Source: Octopus vulgaris (lineage: Eukaryota). From it: a DNA stretch of 64,000 nucleotides. Where the stretch lies: assembly GCA_951406725.2 (NCBI GenBank), contig OX597826.1, positions 15,686,001 through 15,750,000 of the forward strand, written 5' to 3'. A program made the position numbers and the translations under genes. Shown in pieces: positions 2,281-54,320 of the stretch; positions within the stretch are counted from its first letter, which is position 1; every line of letters begins with the position of its first letter. Below the pieces are notes generated by a model that was not told the origin of the DNA, did no database searches, and worked only from the letters and a program-made list of their open reading frames with translations.

Positions 2281-3134
2281 ACACACATCAATACCTAAAT
2301 TTTAAGTCGTGCCATCCACCACATACAAAACGTAACATCCCATACTGCCTAGCCAGAAGAATTTGTACTATTGTAGAAGATGCAAATATCAGGAACAAAC
2401 GCCTAATAGAACTAAGAGAATTTTTGCTCAAACAAAAATACCCATCTCTACTTATAGAAAATGGCATACAGCGGGCTATAAAAATACCTATACAACAACT
2501 TAGGACAACCCAAGGAAGAGGAAAACAAGAACAAGTCATACCATTCATAGTGACACACAACCCATGTCACCAGAATATCTTCAACATTGCCAAAGCAAAC
2601 CTACCAATCATTGCCCAAAGTAATGAATTAAAAGACATAATCAAGGATCGAGCTATGGTACTTAGTAAAAGACAGCCTAAAAACTTGAAAACATTACTAA
2701 CAAAGGCAAAATTTGACCTCAGCAACAAAGACCAAACATTCACGGTATCTAAATGCAATGATAGCCGATGTGGCACATGCCAATTCATACATACCGGTCA
2801 ATATATAAACACAAAAACCGGGAAAATATTCACAAACGCGAATATGAACTGCAAAAGCAGAAATTTAATTTACTGCATCAAATGCCCAAATTGTGAAGAA
2901 ATATATGTAGGTCAGACGGGAAACGCACTATTAGAACGCTCACGTGTACACCGGCAACAGATTAGAGACCCAGAGGTCCGTCAGATACCTTTGAGTAACC
3001 ACCTAGCAACATGTGGTCGGAAAATATATATAATATTTCCATTCTACAAATTACACAGCCCAAGTGAAATCGAGAGGAAAATCAGAGAAAAGAATTTTAT
3101 TGATAAATTCGAACCCAAGCTAAATAAGCAATAA
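2281..3134 (+). pseudogene. 5'-truncated copy of the PLE RT C-terminus plus GIY-YIG endonuclease
   Basis: ORF 2424-3134 matches the C-terminal 236 aa of ORF 5495-7405 apart from F/C near the end; the copy starts mid-protein. Confidence 0.9.
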
Positions 3135-3450
3135 TAATAATACTTAGAGGTATTACTTCCACTGCTACGACCATGACCACTAACAACAACAACAATACTA
3201 AAGGTGATCAAGACGAAGATAGCAGGAAAATTATCTTATTTAGGGTTAAAAGTTCTATTGCCACCACCATCACCACTAGCAACAATAATTAAGGTGCTGA
3301 CAATGATGATGATGACAATTGAAATATAAAAATATAAAAATCTCTGACAAAGGATATTTACAACATTTCTAAAAATAACCCAACAATTGCTGCTTCGGCC
3401 AGGGTCAAGATACAGGACTCTTGACCTGTCCAACAAAGCCTGATGCCTAA

Positions 3451-3595
3451 ACCAATCAGCTCAACCAACCAATCAGCTTAAGTAATTGAGTGATACTACA
3501 CACTGATTGGTCAGAATACAGTTTGCAAAACCTAGCACTCTGGAGCCTACCCAGCTGTATTTATAGCAAAGAATCACTCATCTTGCTACAGTCAA
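3451..3595 (+). promoter_or_regulatory. Putative pseudo-LTR Pol II promoter (three CCAAT boxes and a TATA-like box); copy at 7722-7866
   Basis: ACCAATCAGC at 3451 and 3468, reverse CTGATTGGT at 3503, TATTTATA at 3558; lies about 300-400 bp upstream of the ORF1 ATG. PLE pseudo-LTRs are known to supply the promoter for the downstream unit. Confidence 0.5.
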
Positions 3596-3628
3596 AAATT
3601 GTGAAGCATGACTGTCAACACTACTACA

Positions 3629-3673
3629 TGAACCCGAAGATTGCAGAATTCAATGCATGAAAGTACTAGTTCA
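3629..3673 (+). ncRNA. Minimal type I hammerhead ribozyme (PLE-associated)
   Basis: Stem I TGAAC/GTTCA; core CCGAAGA (CUGANGA variant); stem II TGCA-gaattcaa-TGCA; GAAA; palindromic GTAC minimal stem III; TA cleavage site at 3667-3668. Confidence 0.8.
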
Positions 3674-3878
3674 ATCAGAATGAATATTTAACATTCTACT
3701 ATTTCATTTTATTTTATTCAATTATAATATATTATCTTATAATATATCATTATAAGATTGTAAATAAAACGTGAAAATCAGACAAGGTTGGAATTCTTTT
3801 TATTAATATATTCTTCTATACACAATCACACACACCCATATATATATATATCTATATTCCTATTGTGTATATGCCAAC

Positions 3879-5171
3879 ATGTCTGGAAAGCAACAAACAA
3901 AATTAACAGAATCCGAAAGAATTCTAATGGAAATTTCATCGAAATTATCAACACTCATCACGATGATTGACACACAATCCTCTATTTTAAAGGAAATAGA
4001 AAAACAGTCTACAGACGGAAAACTTGGAAATGAACACATAAACTCTGAAATTAAGAATTTAGCTGAAATGATACCAACAATTATAAAATCTACAAGAGAA
4101 AGCCTACCACAACCTCCTTGGATGTCAGAAATAAACGAAAGAAATCTGGAAAAAGAGGCACACCGAAAAAGAGAAGAGATACAGAAGACATGGAAAAAAC
4201 TCCTTAACATAAGAAAACAAAACTTCTGGAAGGCATATAAATGCGAAAAATATGCTGAAATACATTCGAAATGGATATCTTTAGCGGCACCCATACTTCC
4301 TCGGAAGTACCTAATTAAAGAAATTGCAGGAGAACCAGAGGAAGAAACTAAACTTCGATGGGACCTTAGTTTGATAAAATTCAGGACCGACATCTCCATT
4401 ACCCTGTCTAAACAATCCCGCTACAAAGCCAAATACGAAGCTATCGATGATCAAATCAGAGATGAAATATCCAAACTAACGACCGGCAATATAGCAGAAA
4501 AAATGCGAGAACTATGGATCAGAGATATCTCAAAAGAAGAAAGCAGATCAAGAAAGTTTTGGCAGCGGAAACAATTATTTCTCGACAAATATGCTACAAA
4601 TTACGGTAAAGACACCAGAACTCCGAGAAATAGCATTAAAAGTGGACAACCTCACCAACGCAACATACACCAGAACACGTGGCAACATGAACACCCGTTT
4701 CACCACGAATCGAAGACGAACTACGGTAAGAACTCTTCCCATTTTGTATGCAAACACCCTAATGCACACAACATGAACAAAAAGCACAAACAAAATAGAT
4801 ATTGTTTTGAACAGACCATTAGCAGTAGAAATAACAGGAGATCATTTTCAAGACCTCAACAGAGATTACCCACAAGAAACTGGACAAAAAACCGATCTAG
4901 ATCTAGAAGTAAACCCAGATCATTTCTCCAGGTGGTTAAAAACAATGCTAACAAGAAATTGAAAAGTAGCATACATAATACCAAAAACAAGACAGAAAAC
5001 ATAACGAAACCAAGTAAAGTACCACAACCAAAACGCAAAATTCATCAAGCAAACATCAACAGGAATATAAATCATAACCAGAAAAAAATCCATTTTTTTA
5101 CGTCAGGACAACAAACACCGGAGAAAGAAAAAATCCAAGAGGAAACATACCCCAAACAACTGAACGTATAG
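3879..5171 (+). CDS. PLE ORF1, 430 aa: helical/coiled-coil-like N-terminal two-thirds and a basic N/K/R/S-rich C-terminus; function unknown
   Basis: Long uninterrupted ORF with a good start context (ccaacATGt), inside the element between the pseudo-LTR and the RT ORF; contains an RSRSRSKPRS tract. Confidence 0.8.
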   Translation: MSGKQQTKLTESERILMEISSKLSTLITMIDTQSSILKEIEKQSTDGKLGNEHINSEIKNLAEMIPTIIKSTRESLPQPPWMSEINERNLEKEAHRKREEIQKTWKKLLNIRKQNFWKAYKCEKYAEIHSKWISLAAPILPRKYLIKEIAGEPEEETKLRWDLSLIKFRTDISITLSKQSRYKAKYEAIDDQIRDEISKLTTGNIAEKMRELWIRDISKEESRSRKFWQRKQLFLDKYATNYGKDTRTPRNSIKSGQPHQRNIHQNTWQHEHPFHHESKTNYGKNSSHFVCKHPNAHNMNKKHKQNRYCFEQTISSRNNRRSFSRPQQRLPTRNWTKNRSRSRSKPRSFLQVVKNNANKKLKSSIHNTKNKTENITKPSKVPQPKRKIHQANINRNINHNQKKIHFFTSGQQTPEKEKIQEETYPKQLNV

Positions 5172-7405
5172 ATCCTAAAATAATTAATTTATCAAAAAGA
5201 GATCTTGACAATGATGAAATCCAACTTCTGTCAAAAGGACTGAAATTCACACCTACACCAACAGCCAACCACCAAGAATTAAAGGAGGATATCCAAAAAT
5301 TCTGTCGAAAATTACGACTTGTAGAATTCTTCGCTAACAAAAGTAATGAGATTGATGAATCCCTAGTAAGGAATAAATCAAATTTCACCCCACCAAAAGG
5401 AAGAAATAACTACCTTGACCAATACATTGATATCCTGTCTAAATTTCCCCTTAGACGCAATACCAATGTTAGGCCAAACATTAGCAAATCAGAGATGTCT
5501 GCATGTAAACGTATACAAAACGATCAAACAATAATAATTAAACAAGCAGATAAAGGTGGTGCAATTGTTATTATGGATACCGAATACTATAAGGATTTGG
5601 TTGAAGACCAACTGAAGGATACAACCTTCTATTGTGAAATACCCGCAAATATAGACCACCACATCATGAAAAAGATCAACAACCTGATTTCAACACACCA
5701 CAACTCACTTACGGATAATGAAAAAGACTACATCACCAATTTTGAACCAAAACCCAGCAACTTCTACGGCTTACCAAAAATACACAAATCAAAAAACATT
5801 CAACAGGCAGTAAAAGAACAAGAAAGTGAGTACATAAAATTATTACATCCAAAAGACCTAAAACTTAGACCTATTATAGCTGGTCCAGCATGCCCTACAC
5901 ACCGTCTAAGCAATTTTATTGACATTGTTTTGAAACCACTATGTACTTACATACCAAGTTTCATCAGGGATGACATCGACTTCCTGTCCCATCTTCCCAA
6001 AACAACAGAAACAAATTCAGTTTTACTAAGTTTTGATGTGGTAAGCCTCTACACCAATATTCCACACGATTTAGGAATAAAGGCGATTAAATACTGGTTA
6101 GAAAAACATAGAGAAGTGATTCCCAGCAGATTCACAGTGCCATTTATATTAGACACAGTCAAACTTATTCTAGAAAATAACACATTCTTCTTCAATGGAA
6201 AGAATTACATCCAAATTAGAGGCACGGCGATGGGAACGAGGTTTGCTCCCGTTTACGCCAACTCTGTAATGGGATACTTAGAAGAACAACTCTACCAAGA
6301 GGTGGAGGTAAACTATGGCACTGGATTTAGAAAGTATATTGAAAAGGCATGGAAGAGATACCTAGACGACTGTTTCATAATCTGGACAGAATCTCTAAAT
6401 ACTCTGGAAGAGTTCAATATCCTCCTGAACAACCTACACCCATCTCTCAAATTTACAAAGGAGATGAGTAGTACCAAATTACCATTCCTGGATATAATGG
6501 TAATTAAAAAAGACACCACCATCACCACAGATATATACTATAAACACACAGACACACATCAATACCTAAATTTTAAGTCGTGCCATCCACCACATACAAA
6601 ACGTAACATCCCATACTGCCTAGCCAGAAGAATTTGTACTATTGTAGAAGATGCAAATATCAGGAACAAACGCCTAATAGAACTAAGAGAATTTTTGCTC
6701 AAACAAAAATACCCATCTCTACTTATAGAAAATGGCATACAGCGGGCTATAAAAATACCTATACAACAACTTAGGACAACCCAAGGAAGAGGAAAACAAG
6801 AACAAGTCATACCATTCATAGTGACACACAACCCATGTCACCAGAATATCTTCAACATTGCCAAAGCAAACCTACCAATCATTGCCCAAAGTAATGAATT
6901 AAAAGACATAATCAAGGATCGAGCTATGGTACTTAGTAAAAGACAGCCTAAAAACTTGAAAACATTACTAACAAAGGCAAAATTTGACCTCAGCAACAAA
7001 GACCAAACATTCACGGTATCTAAATGCAATGATAGCCGATGTGGCACATGCCAATTCATACATACCGGTCAATATATAAACACAAAAACCGGGAAAATAT
7101 TCACAAACGCGAATATGAACTGCAAAAGCAGAAATTTAATTTACTGCATCAAATGCCCAAATTGTGAAGAAATATATGTAGGTCAGACGGGAAACGCACT
7201 ATTAGAACGCTCACGTGTACACCGGCAACAGATTAGAGACCCAGAGGTCCGTCAGATACCTTTGAGTAACCACCTAGCAACATGTGGTCGGAAAATATAT
7301 ATAATATTTCCATTCTACAAATTACACAGCCCAAGTGAAATCGAGAGGAAAATCAGAGAAAAGAATTGTATTGATAAATTCGAACCCAAGCTAAATAAGC
7401 AATAA
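5078..7405 (+). CDS. PLE ORF2: reverse transcriptase + Cys-rich linker + GIY-YIG endonuclease (open from 5078; first ATG only at 5495)
   Basis: Manual translation upstream of 5495 shows no stop back to TAA 5075-5077 and gives IINLS...LLSKGLKFTPTP. Motifs: ADKGG, FYGLPKIHK, LRPII, SFDVVSLYTNIP, GTAMG, RYLDD, CNDSRCGTC, NLIYCIKCPNCEEIYVGQTG, R..H...H. Confidence 0.95.
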   Translation, partial: PEKNPFFYVRTTNTGERKNPRGNIPQTTERIDPKIINLSKRDLDNDEIQLLSKGLKFTPTPTANHQELKEDIQKFCRKLRLVEFFANKSNEIDESLVRNKSNFTPPKGRNNYLDQYIDILSKFPLRRNTNVRPNISKSEMSACKRIQNDQTIIIKQADKGGAIVIMDTEYYKDLVEDQLKDTTFYCEIPANIDHHIMKKINNLISTHHNSLTDNEKDYITNFEPKPSNFYGLPKIHKSKNIQQAVKEQESEYIKLLHPKDLKLRPIIAGPACPTHRLSNFIDIVLKPLCTYIPSFIRDDIDFLSHLPKTTETNSVLLSFDVVSLYTNIPHDLGIKAIKYWLEKHREVIPSRFTVPFILDTVKLILENNTFFFNGKNYIQIRGTAMGTRFAPVYANSVMGYLEEQLYQEVEVNYGTGFRKYIEKAWKRYLDDCFIIWTESLNTLEEFNILLNNLHPSLKFTKEMSSTKLPFLDIMVIKKDTTITTDIYYKHTDTHQYLNFKSCHPPHTKRNIPYCLARRICTIVEDANIRNKRLIELREFLLKQKYPSLLIENGIQRAIKIPIQQLRTTQGRGKQEQVIPFIVTHNPCHQNIFNIAKANLPIIAQSNELKDIIKDRAMVLSKRQPKNLKTLLTKAKFDLSNKDQTFTVSKCNDSRCGTCQFIHTGQYINTKTGKIFTNANMNCKSRNLIYCIKCPNCEEIYVGQTGNALLERSRVHRQQIRDPEVRQIPLSNHLATCGRKIYIIFPFYKLHSPSEIERKIREKNCIDKFEPKLNKQ

Positions 7406-8073
7406 TAATAATACTTAGAGGTATTACTTCCACTGCTACGACCATGACCACTAACAACAACAACAATACTAAAGGTGATCAAGACGAAGATAGCAGGAAA
7501 ATTATCTTATTTAGGGTTAAAAGTTCTATTGCCACCACCATCACCACTAGCAACAATAATTAAGGTGCTGACAATGATGATGATGACAATTGAAATATAA
7601 AAATATAAAAATCTCTGACAAAGGATATTTACAACATTTCTAAAAATAACCCAACAATTGCTGCTTCGGCCAGGGTCAAGATACAGGACTCTTGACCTGT
7701 CCAACAAAGCCTGATGCCTAAACCAATCAGCTCAACCAACCAATCAGCTTAAGTAATTGAGTGATACTACACACTGATTGGTCAGAATACAGTTTGCAAA
7801 ACCTAGCACTCTGGAGCCTACCCAGCTGTATTTATAGCAAAGAATCACTCATCTTGCTACAGTCAAAAATTGTGAAGCATGACTGTCAACACTACTACAT
7901 GAACCCGAAGATTGCAGAATTCAATGCATGAAAGTACTAGTTCAATCAGAATGAATATTTAACATTCTACTATTTCATTTTATTTTATTCAATTATAATA
8001 TATTATCTTATAATATATCATTATAAGATTGTAAATAAAACGTGAAAATCAGACAAGGTTGGAATTCTTTTTA

Positions 8074-8082
<9 letters not shown>
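6552..8082 (+). repeat. Downstream copy of the 1.53 kb direct repeat (3' end of the full-length PLE including a 3' UTR of about 680 bp)
   Basis: Matches 2281-3811; AATAAA near the end; runs directly into (TA)n. Confidence 0.95.
7900..7944 (+). ncRNA. Minimal type I hammerhead ribozyme, second copy
   Basis: Identical to 3629-3673. Confidence 0.8.
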
Positions 8083-12689: not shown

Positions 12690-13385
12690 CAGTTAAGTCC
12701 TGTCTACGAAGTTCTCGTTTCAAGATGCATTGTTTAATTCTTCGAGCTTCAAATGTTTTACATCTATTGTAGATCATTTGTTTCCACACCGATCAATCTT
12801 GTGTCTTCAACCTCCACATTAAGAGCATTAAGGTTGTTCTTGTCAGCATCCCTAAAACGTTTCTTAGGTTTATGTCTCGGACGTTTGCCACGCTGCACCT
12901 CCCCGTAAAACAACTTCTTTGGCAACCCGTCATCCTGTATCTTAGCCAGGTGCCCAGTCCAACGCATCTGATTGCATATGAGGATCATTTCAATAATTGA
13001 TATGTTAGCTTGCTGAAGCATAACGGTGCCTGATGTTAAAGAATTCCATTTGATGTCTAGTTTCCTTCTTAAGCAAGTCTGGTGGAATCTTTCGATAACC
13101 TCGATATGGCGCCGATATGTCGTCCAGGTTTCAGAAGAGTATAGGAGGACTGCTAAAGTGCAAGATTCATAGATACTAAGCTTGGTTTTGAAGGTGATAC
13201 CACTATCAGATCACACACGATTTTCAAGCCTTCCAAATGCTTTGCTGCTTTTTCAATTCTCAAATATATTTCAGAATCAAGGGATCCATATCTAGAGATA
13301 GTGCTGCCAAGTTAGATGAACGAATCAACCACATCTAATCTTGTACCCTGGACAAAGATATCAGGTTTCACATACGATTGTGCCT
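12690..13385 (-). pseudogene. RTE-clade LINE 3' fragment
   Basis: QMRWTGHLAKIQDDGLPKKLFYGEVQRGKRPRHKPKKRFRD is typical of the RTE/BovB-like C-terminus; upstream LLYSSETWT-like remnant. Confidence 0.8.
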
Positions 13386-38736: not shown

Positions 38737-39990
38737 CGAGGGCCGTTCAATAAGTAATGCCCCTGACCCACTTGCAGTTGCTTGATCTAGCTGCAATTAT
38801 TCATATCTCTATAGATGAAATGGGAAATTACAGCTCTGAACTAATTGTGGTTTCTGATTTACAGGTGTTTGAACTGAGTCAAGTGTGAAATGGAGCCTGT
38901 TCAGTGTCGAGCAGGGATCCGGTTTTTGTATTTCAAAGGACGCACACCACGGGAGACATTTGATGAAATGAAAGTAACTTATGGTGATGATGCCCCATCA
39001 TAACGACCTTGTAAAACGCTGGTATTCTGAATTCAAACATGGTCGGAACTCTGTGGAAACAGCTCCCAGATCTGGTCGCCCCCTTCTGCCATTGATGAGG
39101 CATCTGTCTGTCAAGTGGAGACTGCCATTTTGGAAGATCGATGCATAACTATTCACCAAATAGCCCATGAGGTCAAGATTAGTACCGGGTCTGTGGAAAC
39201 TATTATTCATGACCATTTGCATATGCAAAAGGTGCCTGCCAGATGGATTCCCAGGTTGCTCACACCTATCCAGAAGCAAGAACGCGTCAAGTGCACGAGG
39301 ATGAAATTGGAGATGTGCCAAGAAAATGAGTTAAAACTTTTTAAAAGACTGATTACACAGGATGAAACCTGGGTCCATCACTATGATCCAGAGACCAAAG
39401 CCCAGTCAATGCAGTGGAAGCACCGTGACTCACCTCCTCCAAAGAAGGCAAGGGTGCAGCCCTCCGCTGGTAAGGTCATGCTCACAGTCTTCTGAGACCA
39501 GGACGGAGTAGTGATGACAGATTTCCTGGCAAAGGGTACCACAATTACAGGAGCCTATTATGCTTCACGTTTGAGGAAATTAAGAGAAGCTATCAAAATC
39601 AAGAGGCGGGGCAAGATTCTCCTCCTCTGGTCCACAACTCGCTTGTCGCCTGATCAGATGCACAGGCGTGCGGCTATGAACTCCTCCCCCATCCCCCTAC
39701 TCTCTTGACCTTTGCACCCTCTGATTTTCACCTCTTCCCAGCCATGAAGTTGTTTTTGAAAGGAAAGCGTTTCCCAGATGATGCAGCCTTAATTTCTGAA
39801 GTCACGTCGTGGCTGAAGGACCAATCTGGGGTCTTCTACAAAAACGGTCTCCAGAGCTGCATCAAATGATGGGAGAAATGCGTAACTCTGGGTGGTTCCT
39901 ATGTAGAAAATGTGTAAAAACTGTGCCAAGTTTCTTTGCTCTACTGCTATGGGAAGTGGGTCAGGGGCATTACTTATTGAACGCCCCTCG
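38737..39990 (+). mobile_element. Full-length mariner element (irritans-like), transposase pseudogenised
   Basis: TIRs cgagggccgttcaataagtaatgcccctgaccca / tgggtcaggggcattacttattgaacgcccctcg with TA TSDs; 1254 bp; WIPRLLT and DETWVHHYDPE motifs; stops and frameshifts. Confidence 0.95.
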
Positions 39991-51842: not shown

Positions 51843-54316
51843 GTAGAAATATGTTACGAAAAGAAAATATAAAATACACGTGGAAATGTAAGGGTAAAAT
51901 ATGAAAAATCAACGAAAATGCATATTGCAAATAGAAAAAGGCACTTTATGACACGTAATGACAAATATATACATTTAGATTGACTGAGGTAGTAATACGA
52001 GTCATAAAGGTCATTATTATGAGATGATTATAAGATGATAATAAAGTAAGAGAAGAAAACGAACCAGTGATTTACGCGAAGGCTATTCATCGTTTGAACA
52101 ACACCGTTTAATATACGGTGTCAGGTCTTATAGTTCCTGAGAAAAAAGATTATTTTTAAAGGAGGTAAGTAGTTCTGGATTATTTGTAAGGGAGTTCTGG
52201 AATTAGAGATGTGAGTGATGTAGGTAGTGTATAGGGTTTAGTGGTTTCAATTGAAGAGTTAGTGGTGTTCTGTATTGAGTTGTGTGTTCATATTTAGTTG
52301 GGGGAGAAATTTGTTGATGAAATATCTCTTTATTCAGCCTTTGTTGCATTTTGGTGTTCTGTGAGCATTTGTAAAAGGGAAATATTTGGAAATTGGGATT
52401 AATATTCCTGGCACATCTTTCTATGTGTTCACTCACCTTTAAATGTCTGTATTGTGGGTGACGGATTTGCTCTTTGTGAATGGTGATTCTTTGACGGAGC
52501 GAAATTCCTGTTTATCCAATATTAGAGTTTACCACATCCTATGCATATCATGACATAGATTACATTTGCTGAGGCGCAGGTGAAATTTGATTTGATCATA
52601 AATATTTCTCCTTGTTTGAATTGGAATTCTGAACCCTCCAGAAGGTGGGGGCATGTTCCACAGTTAGAACGTCCACATTTTGTCAGGTTTGGCTCAGTAG
52701 TTAGTGGGTAAAGTCTAGCGCTAGTTAATATTATTTTCAGTGACTTTGGTTGCTTTTTGCTTTTTATAATTTTATATGAGTTTAAAATTTCGTTCATTGT
52801 TTTGTCTGCTGTGAGGATGGGAATGTTTTGGGTGATGATGTCGAAGGCTTCGTTGTTTCTGGGGTTATATGTGGAGATGTGCGGGAGTATTTTTAAGTCT
52901 TGTTTAGTATTTCGGCTAGTTTTCCTTAATCTTTGTATATCTATTTCCCTATCTCTTTTGATGCCTTCATTTACTAATGAGATTGGGTAGTGTCTTCTAG
53001 TTAGTGTAGATCTAAGTTCAAGGAGTCTAAGTCCACGAGTGTATGTATCGGAAACTATGGTGCAGATTATCTTTGGGGTGGCAGGAGTCAAATAATAGGT
53101 ATTGTTTAGAATCTGTGGGTTTATAAAAGATGTCTGTTTCTATGAGGTTGTTAACTATTCTAATTAAGATGTCTAAAAAAGGTAGTTGCTTACTGTCGTG
53201 TTCCATAGTGAATTGTATATTGCTGTGTATGTTGTTGAGCATTCTTTTGAAATCAAGGAGTTGGTCCATGCTATCTTGCCAAAGTATGAAGCAATCAACT
53301 AAATATCTCTTCCAGTTCTCCTTTAAGTAGCAATTGAAAGAGGCGCCATATTTTTCTAGTGATGATTGGTATAACTTAAGTTCGTGGTAACCCATTACGA
53401 GGTTTGCAATCACTGGAGCAGCTCTGGTCCCTATTGCAATTCCGCATGTCTATCGATAGTAAGTAGTATCGAACAAGAAATGATTGTTCAACAGAACGAA
53501 TTTCAGTGCTTCAATTATAAAATTGTGGTTAATTCGACCTGGGATCTCTTCTGGGTATTTTTCTAGCCAAAATGTGATTACTTCTATACCATAGTCGTGT
53601 GGGATATTAGTGTATAGATTCACCACATCGAAAGACACAAGTAGAGTTCCGTCCTTTACTGTCTTCGGGATGTGGTTCAGCATGTCTAGGTCATCCCTGA
53701 TATAACTTTTCACATATTTTAAAAGAGGTTTGAGTAATATGTCAAGGAAGTTACTCAAACGGTGGGTTTCGCAAGAAGGGCCAGCTATGATGGGTCTGAG
53801 TTTGAGGTCAGTAGGTGGAGGGACATTAATGCATAGGCTTGTAGAGACTTTGCAGGCTTCACAAATGAGTGGATTTTTATGTATCTTGGGTAATCCGTAG
53901 AATAGACTAGGACTGTATTTAAAATTGGATAGATAGTCAATTTCATGTGTTGTAAGACCCTTTCCATGAATTTGGAGTAAGGAGGATAAGTTCTTTAGTG
54001 TTTTCTGTGGGTTGTAATATGTTGGGTTTTCATAGTAAGTATTATTTTCCAACATGGAAAGTATTACATGTTCGTAGTACTCTGTATCCATCAATAATAC
54101 CGCACTTCCTTTCTCGGCTTCTTTAATAGTGAGGTTTATGTCATTTTTTAGCTCGACCAGGTCTTTCCATTCATTTAAATTTAGGTTGGATTTGATATAT
54201 TGTTTTGGAATGGTATTGTAAGGAAAACAAGTTATGTGATCACAGAAAACATCAAGTGCTTTATTTCTACCTTTTTTAGAATGGTACTCACTTTTGTTTT
54301 TCACTATTGAGTCATC

Positions 54317-54320
<4 letters not shown>
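51843..54320 (-). pseudogene. Degraded, 5'-truncated Penelope-like element of the same clade as 2281-8082
   Basis: Frameshifted ORFs with FYGLPKIHK, LRPIIAGPSC, SFDVVNLYTNIP, RYLVD, KCGRSNCGTC, NVIYVMICIGC; bounded by (TA)n / (TACA)n. Confidence 0.9.

Follow-up and report, generated by a model that had tools for sequence, protein, structure and literature searches.

The 64,000-nt stretch of DNA analysed here (the window) contains a Penelope-like element (PLE) that encodes a 430-aa protein, ORF1, ahead of its reverse transcriptase (RT). ORF1 belongs to a protein family that is linked to PLE RTs and evolves under purifying selection, and its reading frame overlaps that of the RT at a slippery heptamer held in phase. 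Our preferred reading, to which we assign a probability of about 0.6, is that ORF1 acts as an RNA-packaging protein comparable to Gag or LINE ORF1p and that a rarer ORF1-RT-endonuclease fusion is made by ribosomal slippage. That ORF1 is functional seems to us almost certain.

ORF1 and the element that carries it

The following features were annotated in the window.

2281..3810 (+): upstream tandem copy truncated at its 5' end and made up of the 3' part of ORF2 and the 3' UTR, a repeat of 6552-8081 that forms a pseudo-LTR
3629..3673 (+), with a second copy at 7900-7944: type-I hammerhead-like motif of minimal form, with C for U4 in the core and a palindromic helix III, read by eye
3811..3878 (+): short leader preceding the ORF1 ATG and confined to the 5' side of ORF1; it recurs, with variants of 1-2 nt, in 36 of 38 ATG contexts
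3879..5171 (+): ORF1 (P0001), 430 aa, from translation; identity is 100% across aa 1-244 in 42 genomic copies, counting that of the window
3909..4097 (+): N-terminal heptad helix, aa 11-73, a predicted coiled coil (AlphaFold model; 3.5-residue period)
4116..4601 (+): conserved all-helical core, aa 80-241 (alignment and AlphaFold model)
4629..5168 (+): basic polar tail, aa 251-430, predicted to be disordered (composition; pLDDT)
5093..5099 (+): in-phase slippery heptamer of seven T, codons H405-F406-F407, a likely -1 frameshift site (phase, conservation, FL imprint)
5078..7405 (+): ORF2, with a PLE RT (RVT_1, E 2.3e-6, under its cut-off), a C-x4-C-x2-C linker and, at the C-terminus, a GIY-YIG domain (E 6.3e-5)
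7406..8081 (+): 3' UTR and downstream pseudo-LTR with (TA)n at its end (sequence)

The original prediction described an intact ORF carried by a PLE, with heptad-like helices, a Trp-studded helical core and a basic, disordered tail with RS repeats, and it quoted several sequence motifs. ORF1 indeed reads without interruption from the ATG at 3879 to the TAG at 5171, and all of the quoted motifs were located in its translation (ERILMEIS... at residue 13, WKKLLNIRKQNFW at 105, PILPRKYL at 138, LWIRD at 212 and EESRS at 220). Hydrophobic residues recur across the family with a period of 3.5 residues at positions 12-68, in agreement with heptad-like helices. The description of the core also stands: in a 122-sequence alignment, at least 80% of the aligned rows retain each of W105, W117, W132, W213 and W228, and the model is helical. 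The tail (aa 251-430) is basic, with 21% K+R and 4% D+E for a net charge of +30, and its predicted disorder is reflected in pLDDT values mostly below 50 and no secondary structure in the model; the RS repeats, however, amount to a single RSRSRS at residues 339-344. A net positive tail was found in 96 of 102 ORF1 homologues. Separately, a short motif (Y-[AS]-x-hydrophobic-hydrophobic) is present in 33 of 96 otherwise unalignable homologue tails, a raw count with no chance control.

The frame downstream of ORF1 bears out that the carrier is a PLE. ORF2 presents the DKG and GxKF motifs together with a GIY-YIG endonuclease, as expected of EN+ PLEs, and the endonuclease domain is C-terminal (aa 687-773 of ORF2), not N-terminal as in Naiad and Chlamys. 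The CX2-5CxxC linker was found in all six families defined below, and its spacing, judged by eye, is nearer to the Neptune than to the Nematis rows. Based on these sequence features, the element fits a Neptune-type EN+ PLE as characterized in the available parts of PMC8557442.

The tandem repeat is nearly perfect: 2281-3810 and 6552-8081 present one difference in 1530 nt, and the tandem unit is 4271 nt long. The start of the upstream copy at 2281 adjoins (TA)n, and the element is abutted by (TA)n at both ends. Contigs covering 3140-7420 from all four runs display a jump from about 7410 to 3140 (4271-4274 nt), which points to tandem units or possibly to circular RNA. Scanning the window with Rfam yielded no hammerhead and only microsatellite noise, and a regular-expression search missed the copy read by eye. 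A hammerhead with a canonical core and the same layout is present in family L057, 84 nt after ORF2. Position 3635 is C in the window, whereas the canonical T is found in run X15, which bears another organism label, and as a minority in run X11. This very active PLE family may therefore carry a weakened ribozyme, its predicted hammerhead having C at the usual U4.

A protein family without an assigned fold

An exhaustive protein search assigned 444 clusters (50% identity) to the ORF1 family at E <= 0.001, of which 156 reach E <= 1e-10; the family sequences analysed here are the best 150 of the 444 clusters. Most full-length homologues stand alone, about 350-470 aa in length and encoded on contigs a few kb long, and the few that are named are 'hypothetical' bivalve proteins. 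We found no longer fused form (957-2730 aa), which is weak evidence, and no ORF1 relative on viral contigs. One homologue (P0154) is filed under the assembly of a bacterial gill symbiont and is probably host contamination. A match of 25 aa in a prokaryote genome (L068) was rejected as chance, and tblastn revealed no ORF1 or RT there. Eight positions are conserved at 90% or more in the 122-sequence alignment: W105, R112, P141, K143, E152, D190, W213 and E221. A neutral chance ORF was rejected as an explanation, given the 444 protein clusters and the 152 matches to the ORF1 core in the element's own genome.

AlphaFold modelled aa 1-254 of ORF1 with a mean pLDDT of 91.9 and a pTM of 0.70, with five helices and no strands. 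The first helix spans residues 11-73 and is followed by a core of four (80-100, 102-134, 154-200 and 203-241). The predicted architecture is thus a heptad helix, a Trp-anchored helical core and a basic disordered tail.

None of the searches for known domains assigned the family. A Pfam scan of the 430-aa ORF recovered no family with E up to 1, and among 60 ORF1 homologues no Pfam match rose above the curated cut-offs. PHROGs gave nothing usable for the family, and neither did the ESM Atlas when queried with two homologues. PDB searches by sequence and profile matched designed or generic coiled coils only. The original prediction had proposed a Foldseek search with an AlphaFold model: this search, conducted against PDB and BFVD, returned no match at E <= 0.001, hence no significant match to a capsid fold, and it revealed no annotated domain or fold. 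Based on the lack of any Pfam, PHROG, PDB or Foldseek assignment, we consider the family to be without an assigned fold, which does not by itself prove that the fold is new. In VIA, the highest-ranking structure scored Z 9.6, with 146 residues aligned at an rmsd of 5.0 A; it stands among unrelated helical bundles, and its score is generic for such bundles.

The absence of a CCHC knuckle, an RRM or an esterase motif, as originally reported, was confirmed across the family. No CCHC zinc knuckle was found in any of 96 members. GDS is present in two of 96 cores and is not conserved, and the all-helical model differs from the alpha/beta fold of SGNH esterases, so ORF1 is not an esterase-type ORF1p. 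The RRM and CTD that follow the coiled coil in ORF1p of the LINE-1 type have no counterpart here either, with no strand in the confident models and no Pfam match.

A helical protein of this kind might instead act on membranes or in trafficking, as a coiled-coil or three-helix tether, in place of or in addition to RNA. A lipid function has been proposed for esterase-type ORF1ps in the available part of PMC3905857, and resemblances to syntaxin Habc (Z 8.5, rmsd 6.6 A, 118 residues aligned) and to BAR/ESCRT-III proteins (E > 0.6), all weak and generic, point in the same direction. These scores, however, fall below the level at which the tool is meaningful for helical bundles (about Z 13), the family displays no conserved catalytic motif, and the basic tail would suit nucleic acid at least equally well. 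We consider a membrane role improbable.

Genomic copies, linkage to the RT and purifying selection

The 152 matches to the ORF1 core were found in the 2.8-Gb animal genome to which the element belongs, and the identity of 42 copies over 244 aa indicates that the element family is very young. We examined 32 loci: the window, 30 loci selected from searches with two distant homologues as queries and one metagenome contig. The original prediction had raised the question of whether homologues always sit upstream of PLE RTs; a PLE RT was found downstream of the ORF1 homologue and on the same strand in all 32. The intact -1 overlap with its heptamer is present in 26 of these loci, and the other six are broken copies. 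The loci represent six families, five from the element's own genome and one from the metagenome contig, and these families share 24-62% identity in ORF1 and 44-72% in ORF2.

Several neighbouring observations concern other copies and elements. The same genome contains no fewer than four other families with ORF1, represented by loci L045, L048, L052 and L059; several of these families have intact multi-copy frames, and the N-terminus of ORF1 is extended in L059. Loci L034-L036 (G000:C23:4572000-4600500) are clustered full-length copies in tandem and inverted arrangement with one private SNP in common, which is consistent with a single complex insertion or a local amplification. The window itself contains a decayed, 5'-truncated PLE RT-EN of another family at 52300-54320 on the minus strand, for which no ORF1 remnant was found; the best piece of its RT is 57-58% identical to the RTs of L045, L048 and L052 and 48% identical to that of the main element. 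Finally, the fragment at 39031-39495 resembles a mariner-type transposase and that at 12764-13210 the C-terminus of a LINE RT.

Selection was estimated across families, as the original prediction had suggested. For the least diverged family pair, the ORF1 core presented dN 0.22 and dS 1.56, yielding dN/dS of 0.14 (NG86) and 0.10 (ML), and ORF2 of the same pair yielded 0.10 and 0.08, respectively. These values indicate purifying selection in the one clearly unsaturated pair; dS was undefined by NG86 in six of ten pairs, including all four that involve the window's family.

A likely programmed -1 frameshift between ORF1 and ORF2

ORF2 lies in the -1 frame relative to ORF1, overlaps it by 91 nt and opens 15 nt before the T run. 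Its first Met is codon 140 (5495), downstream of the IINLS and GxKF motifs. The interval from the slip site to the start of the RT contains no Met in five of six families, and in L052 a Met is found just before the RT start. The heptamer, U_UUU_UUU/A, is in X_XXY_YYZ phase with ORF1 in all six families. Its imprint extends to the wider protein family: of 103 homologues with lengths of 300-560 aa, 81 have FL within their last 45 aa (eight of the 103 proteins being cluster mates of others), against five and five in two upstream windows and a mean of 8 with a maximum of 17 in shuffled controls. The residue before FL is never Q, K, E, W or M, none of which has a codon ending in T (0 of 81, p about 6e-10), and the residue after FL is G, E or D in 57 of 81 cases. 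In-phase U runs also arise by chance, with four in AT-rich sequence upstream of ORF1 ATGs and one within an RT frame. Judged from these sequence patterns, the heptamer is very probably a site of programmed -1 ribosomal slippage.

A simple stem search detected no pseudoknot or strong hairpin 3' of the heptamer in the five families of the element's own genome, for which minimum free energies over the following 90 nt range from -0.9 to -9.3 kcal/mol. A plausible 3' pseudoknot was found in L057 only, i.e., in one of six families.

The two-frame layout is stable across copies. The -1 layout is retained by 26 of the 30 copies with the highest scores, and no fused frame occurs among these 30. A frame fused over more than 1000 aa was found in seven of 150 listed copies. 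These fused copies result from different indels in nearby A runs or from deletions and share no SNP, which indicates that the fused form has not spread. The T run is unaltered in 45 of 45 genomic junction alignments, and nearby A runs vary. Contigs of four runs, whose status as RNA is a guess, contain neither a splice joint nor an indel at the junction, and three of them bridge it without a gap.

These data bear on two other accounts of the junction. In the first, the joining of ORF1 to the RT would come about by splicing, by transcriptional slippage or by reinitiation, with no ribosomal slip. Mussel gene models in which an ORF1 homologue is spliced to PLE RT sequence would fit such a process, as would the weak stimulatory structure observed here. 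The mussel models, however, leave out the IINLS motif and seem to be artefacts of gene prediction, and the run contigs offer no trace of splicing. The constancy of the T run speaks against transcriptional slippage, which should leave T8 copies after reverse transcription, and the codon phase that has been kept is needed by translation only. We therefore give these routes little credence. The second account, in which ORF1 is a neutral open frame or a homopolymer assembly error has split one long ORF, draws on the few fused copies. The junction is not an assembly error, since most top-scoring copies keep its layout and contigs of independent runs bridge it. Its recurrence in six families, together with dN/dS of about 0.1, refutes both variants, and we leave this account almost no probability.

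Proposed role of ORF1 and comparison with known systems

Under our preferred reading, ORF1 as a packaging protein and a rarer fusion made by slippage, most ribosomes would stop at 5171 and produce abundant ORF1p. The heptad pattern suggests that ORF1p would self-associate through its N-terminal coiled coil. It would also bind RNA through the basic tail and core residues R112, K113, R142, K143, K147 and R160, coating the element RNA; we infer such RNA binding or chaperone activity. A minority of ribosomes would slip at 5093-5099 and yield a fusion about 1175 aa long. Its ORF1 portion would join ORF1p in assembly and thereby carry the RT and endonuclease into a particle on their own RNA. The original prediction proposed a new type of RNP-forming or chaperone protein analogous to Gag or LINE ORF1p: the conserved, likely -1 frameshift lends weight to this analogy and the protein family appears to be new, but the architecture was already known. 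Against a Gag-like role, no RRM, knuckle or capsid fold links ORF1 to a known RNA-binding module.

More tentatively, ORF1 might represent a third, independently evolved packaging protein of retroelements in a large lineage of EN+ PLEs. Such a protein would be all-helical and unrelated to Gag or LINE ORF1p, would build ordered RNP particles and would recruit the RT by a Gag-Pol-style fusion at a largely structure-free U_UUU_UUA site. We regard this broader proposal as possible, though on balance doubtful.

Alternatively, ORF1 could serve mainly as an N-terminal accessory domain of the RT fusion, contributing to solubility, localization or the binding of a target or host factor, and free ORF1p would be a side product whose synthesis limits the amount of RT. 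The available parts of PMC8557442 present canonical EN+ PLEs as single-ORF elements, which implies that the class can do without a packaging protein, and ORF1 has no known RNA-binding fold. On the other hand, in-frame fusions recur without spreading, the conserved coiled coil and basic tail suit a stoichiometric structural role, and lowering the RT alone would not require a selected fold of 240 aa. We view an accessory role as unlikely.

The packaging reading invites comparison with other retroelements. The Gag-Pol slip site of HIV-1 is U_UUU_UUA. Like Gag-Pol of retroviruses and LTR elements, the PLE combines a structural ORF with a -1 overlap to the polymerase and presents the same heptamer, usually followed by G; it differs in having no CCHC knuckle, no capsid fold match and no protease, and in being a TPRT-type element with a GIY-YIG domain. 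In L1, ORF1p contains a coiled coil and ORF2 is translated separately. The ORF1ps of the LINE-1 and ZfL2 types, as presented in the available part of PMC3905857, resemble ORF1 in being encoded by the first ORF, in their N-terminal coiled coil and in a presumed RNP role, whereas ORF1 possesses no RRM, CTD, esterase or beta strand and is likely joined to the RT by a frameshift instead of preceding a separate ORF2.

Among PLEs, the closest precedent is provided by Craig et al. 2021 (PMC8557442), where the legend of Fig. 1 and the preprint legend name a coiled coil and an ORF1 separable by a frameshift with a pseudoknot. Both systems share an ORF1 upstream of a PLE RT, a frameshift, which is likely here, and a coiled coil, which is predicted here; in the present families, the pseudoknot was not found in five of six families, and the available text of that paper gives no ORF1 sequence family or fold. 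The element agrees with the Neptune clade, as far as the available descriptions go, in its RT, in the CX2-5CxxC linker, in a GIY-YIG that is C-terminal and has CCHH-type residues, in the pseudo-LTR tandem, in (TA)n and in a candidate minimal hammerhead. Neptune-like PLEs with esterases are described for fish and molluscs in the available part of PMC5408684, whereas the additional ORF found here encodes an all-helical protein of 350-470 aa that is not an esterase. The killifish Neptune of PMC12602865 (available part) possesses an unannotated 420-nt ORF1 that is short and does not overlap, and is set apart here by description only. Athena and Terminon elements, likewise compared by description only in the available parts of PMC6431247 and PMC5408684, carry putatively structural coiled-coil ORFs beside a PLE RT but are endonuclease-deficient and telomeric.

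In the full-text literature, we found no description of this ORF1 protein family and no paper pairing 'Penelope-like element' with 'programmed ribosomal frameshift'; figures, Repbase, Dfam and some earlier PLE papers lie outside that scope and may describe the family. Overall, the architecture of two ORFs with a frameshift is known for PLEs. What appears to be undescribed is the all-helical family of ORF1 proteins, together with its breadth and the family-wide imprint of the slip site.

These results have a practical consequence for annotation. The RT ORFs of such elements are currently mis-annotated, as spurious splice models, as a 'hypothetical protein' and, in one record, as part of a bacterial symbiont, and a family profile would correct this. 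PLEs form the sister group to telomerase RTs. For EN+ PLEs, ORF1 constitutes a defined candidate protein for the packaging of the RNA and for the step by which the RT finds it. The young family offers dozens of intact copies, a model of high confidence, residues that do not vary and a precisely located recoding site, which makes both steps directly testable.
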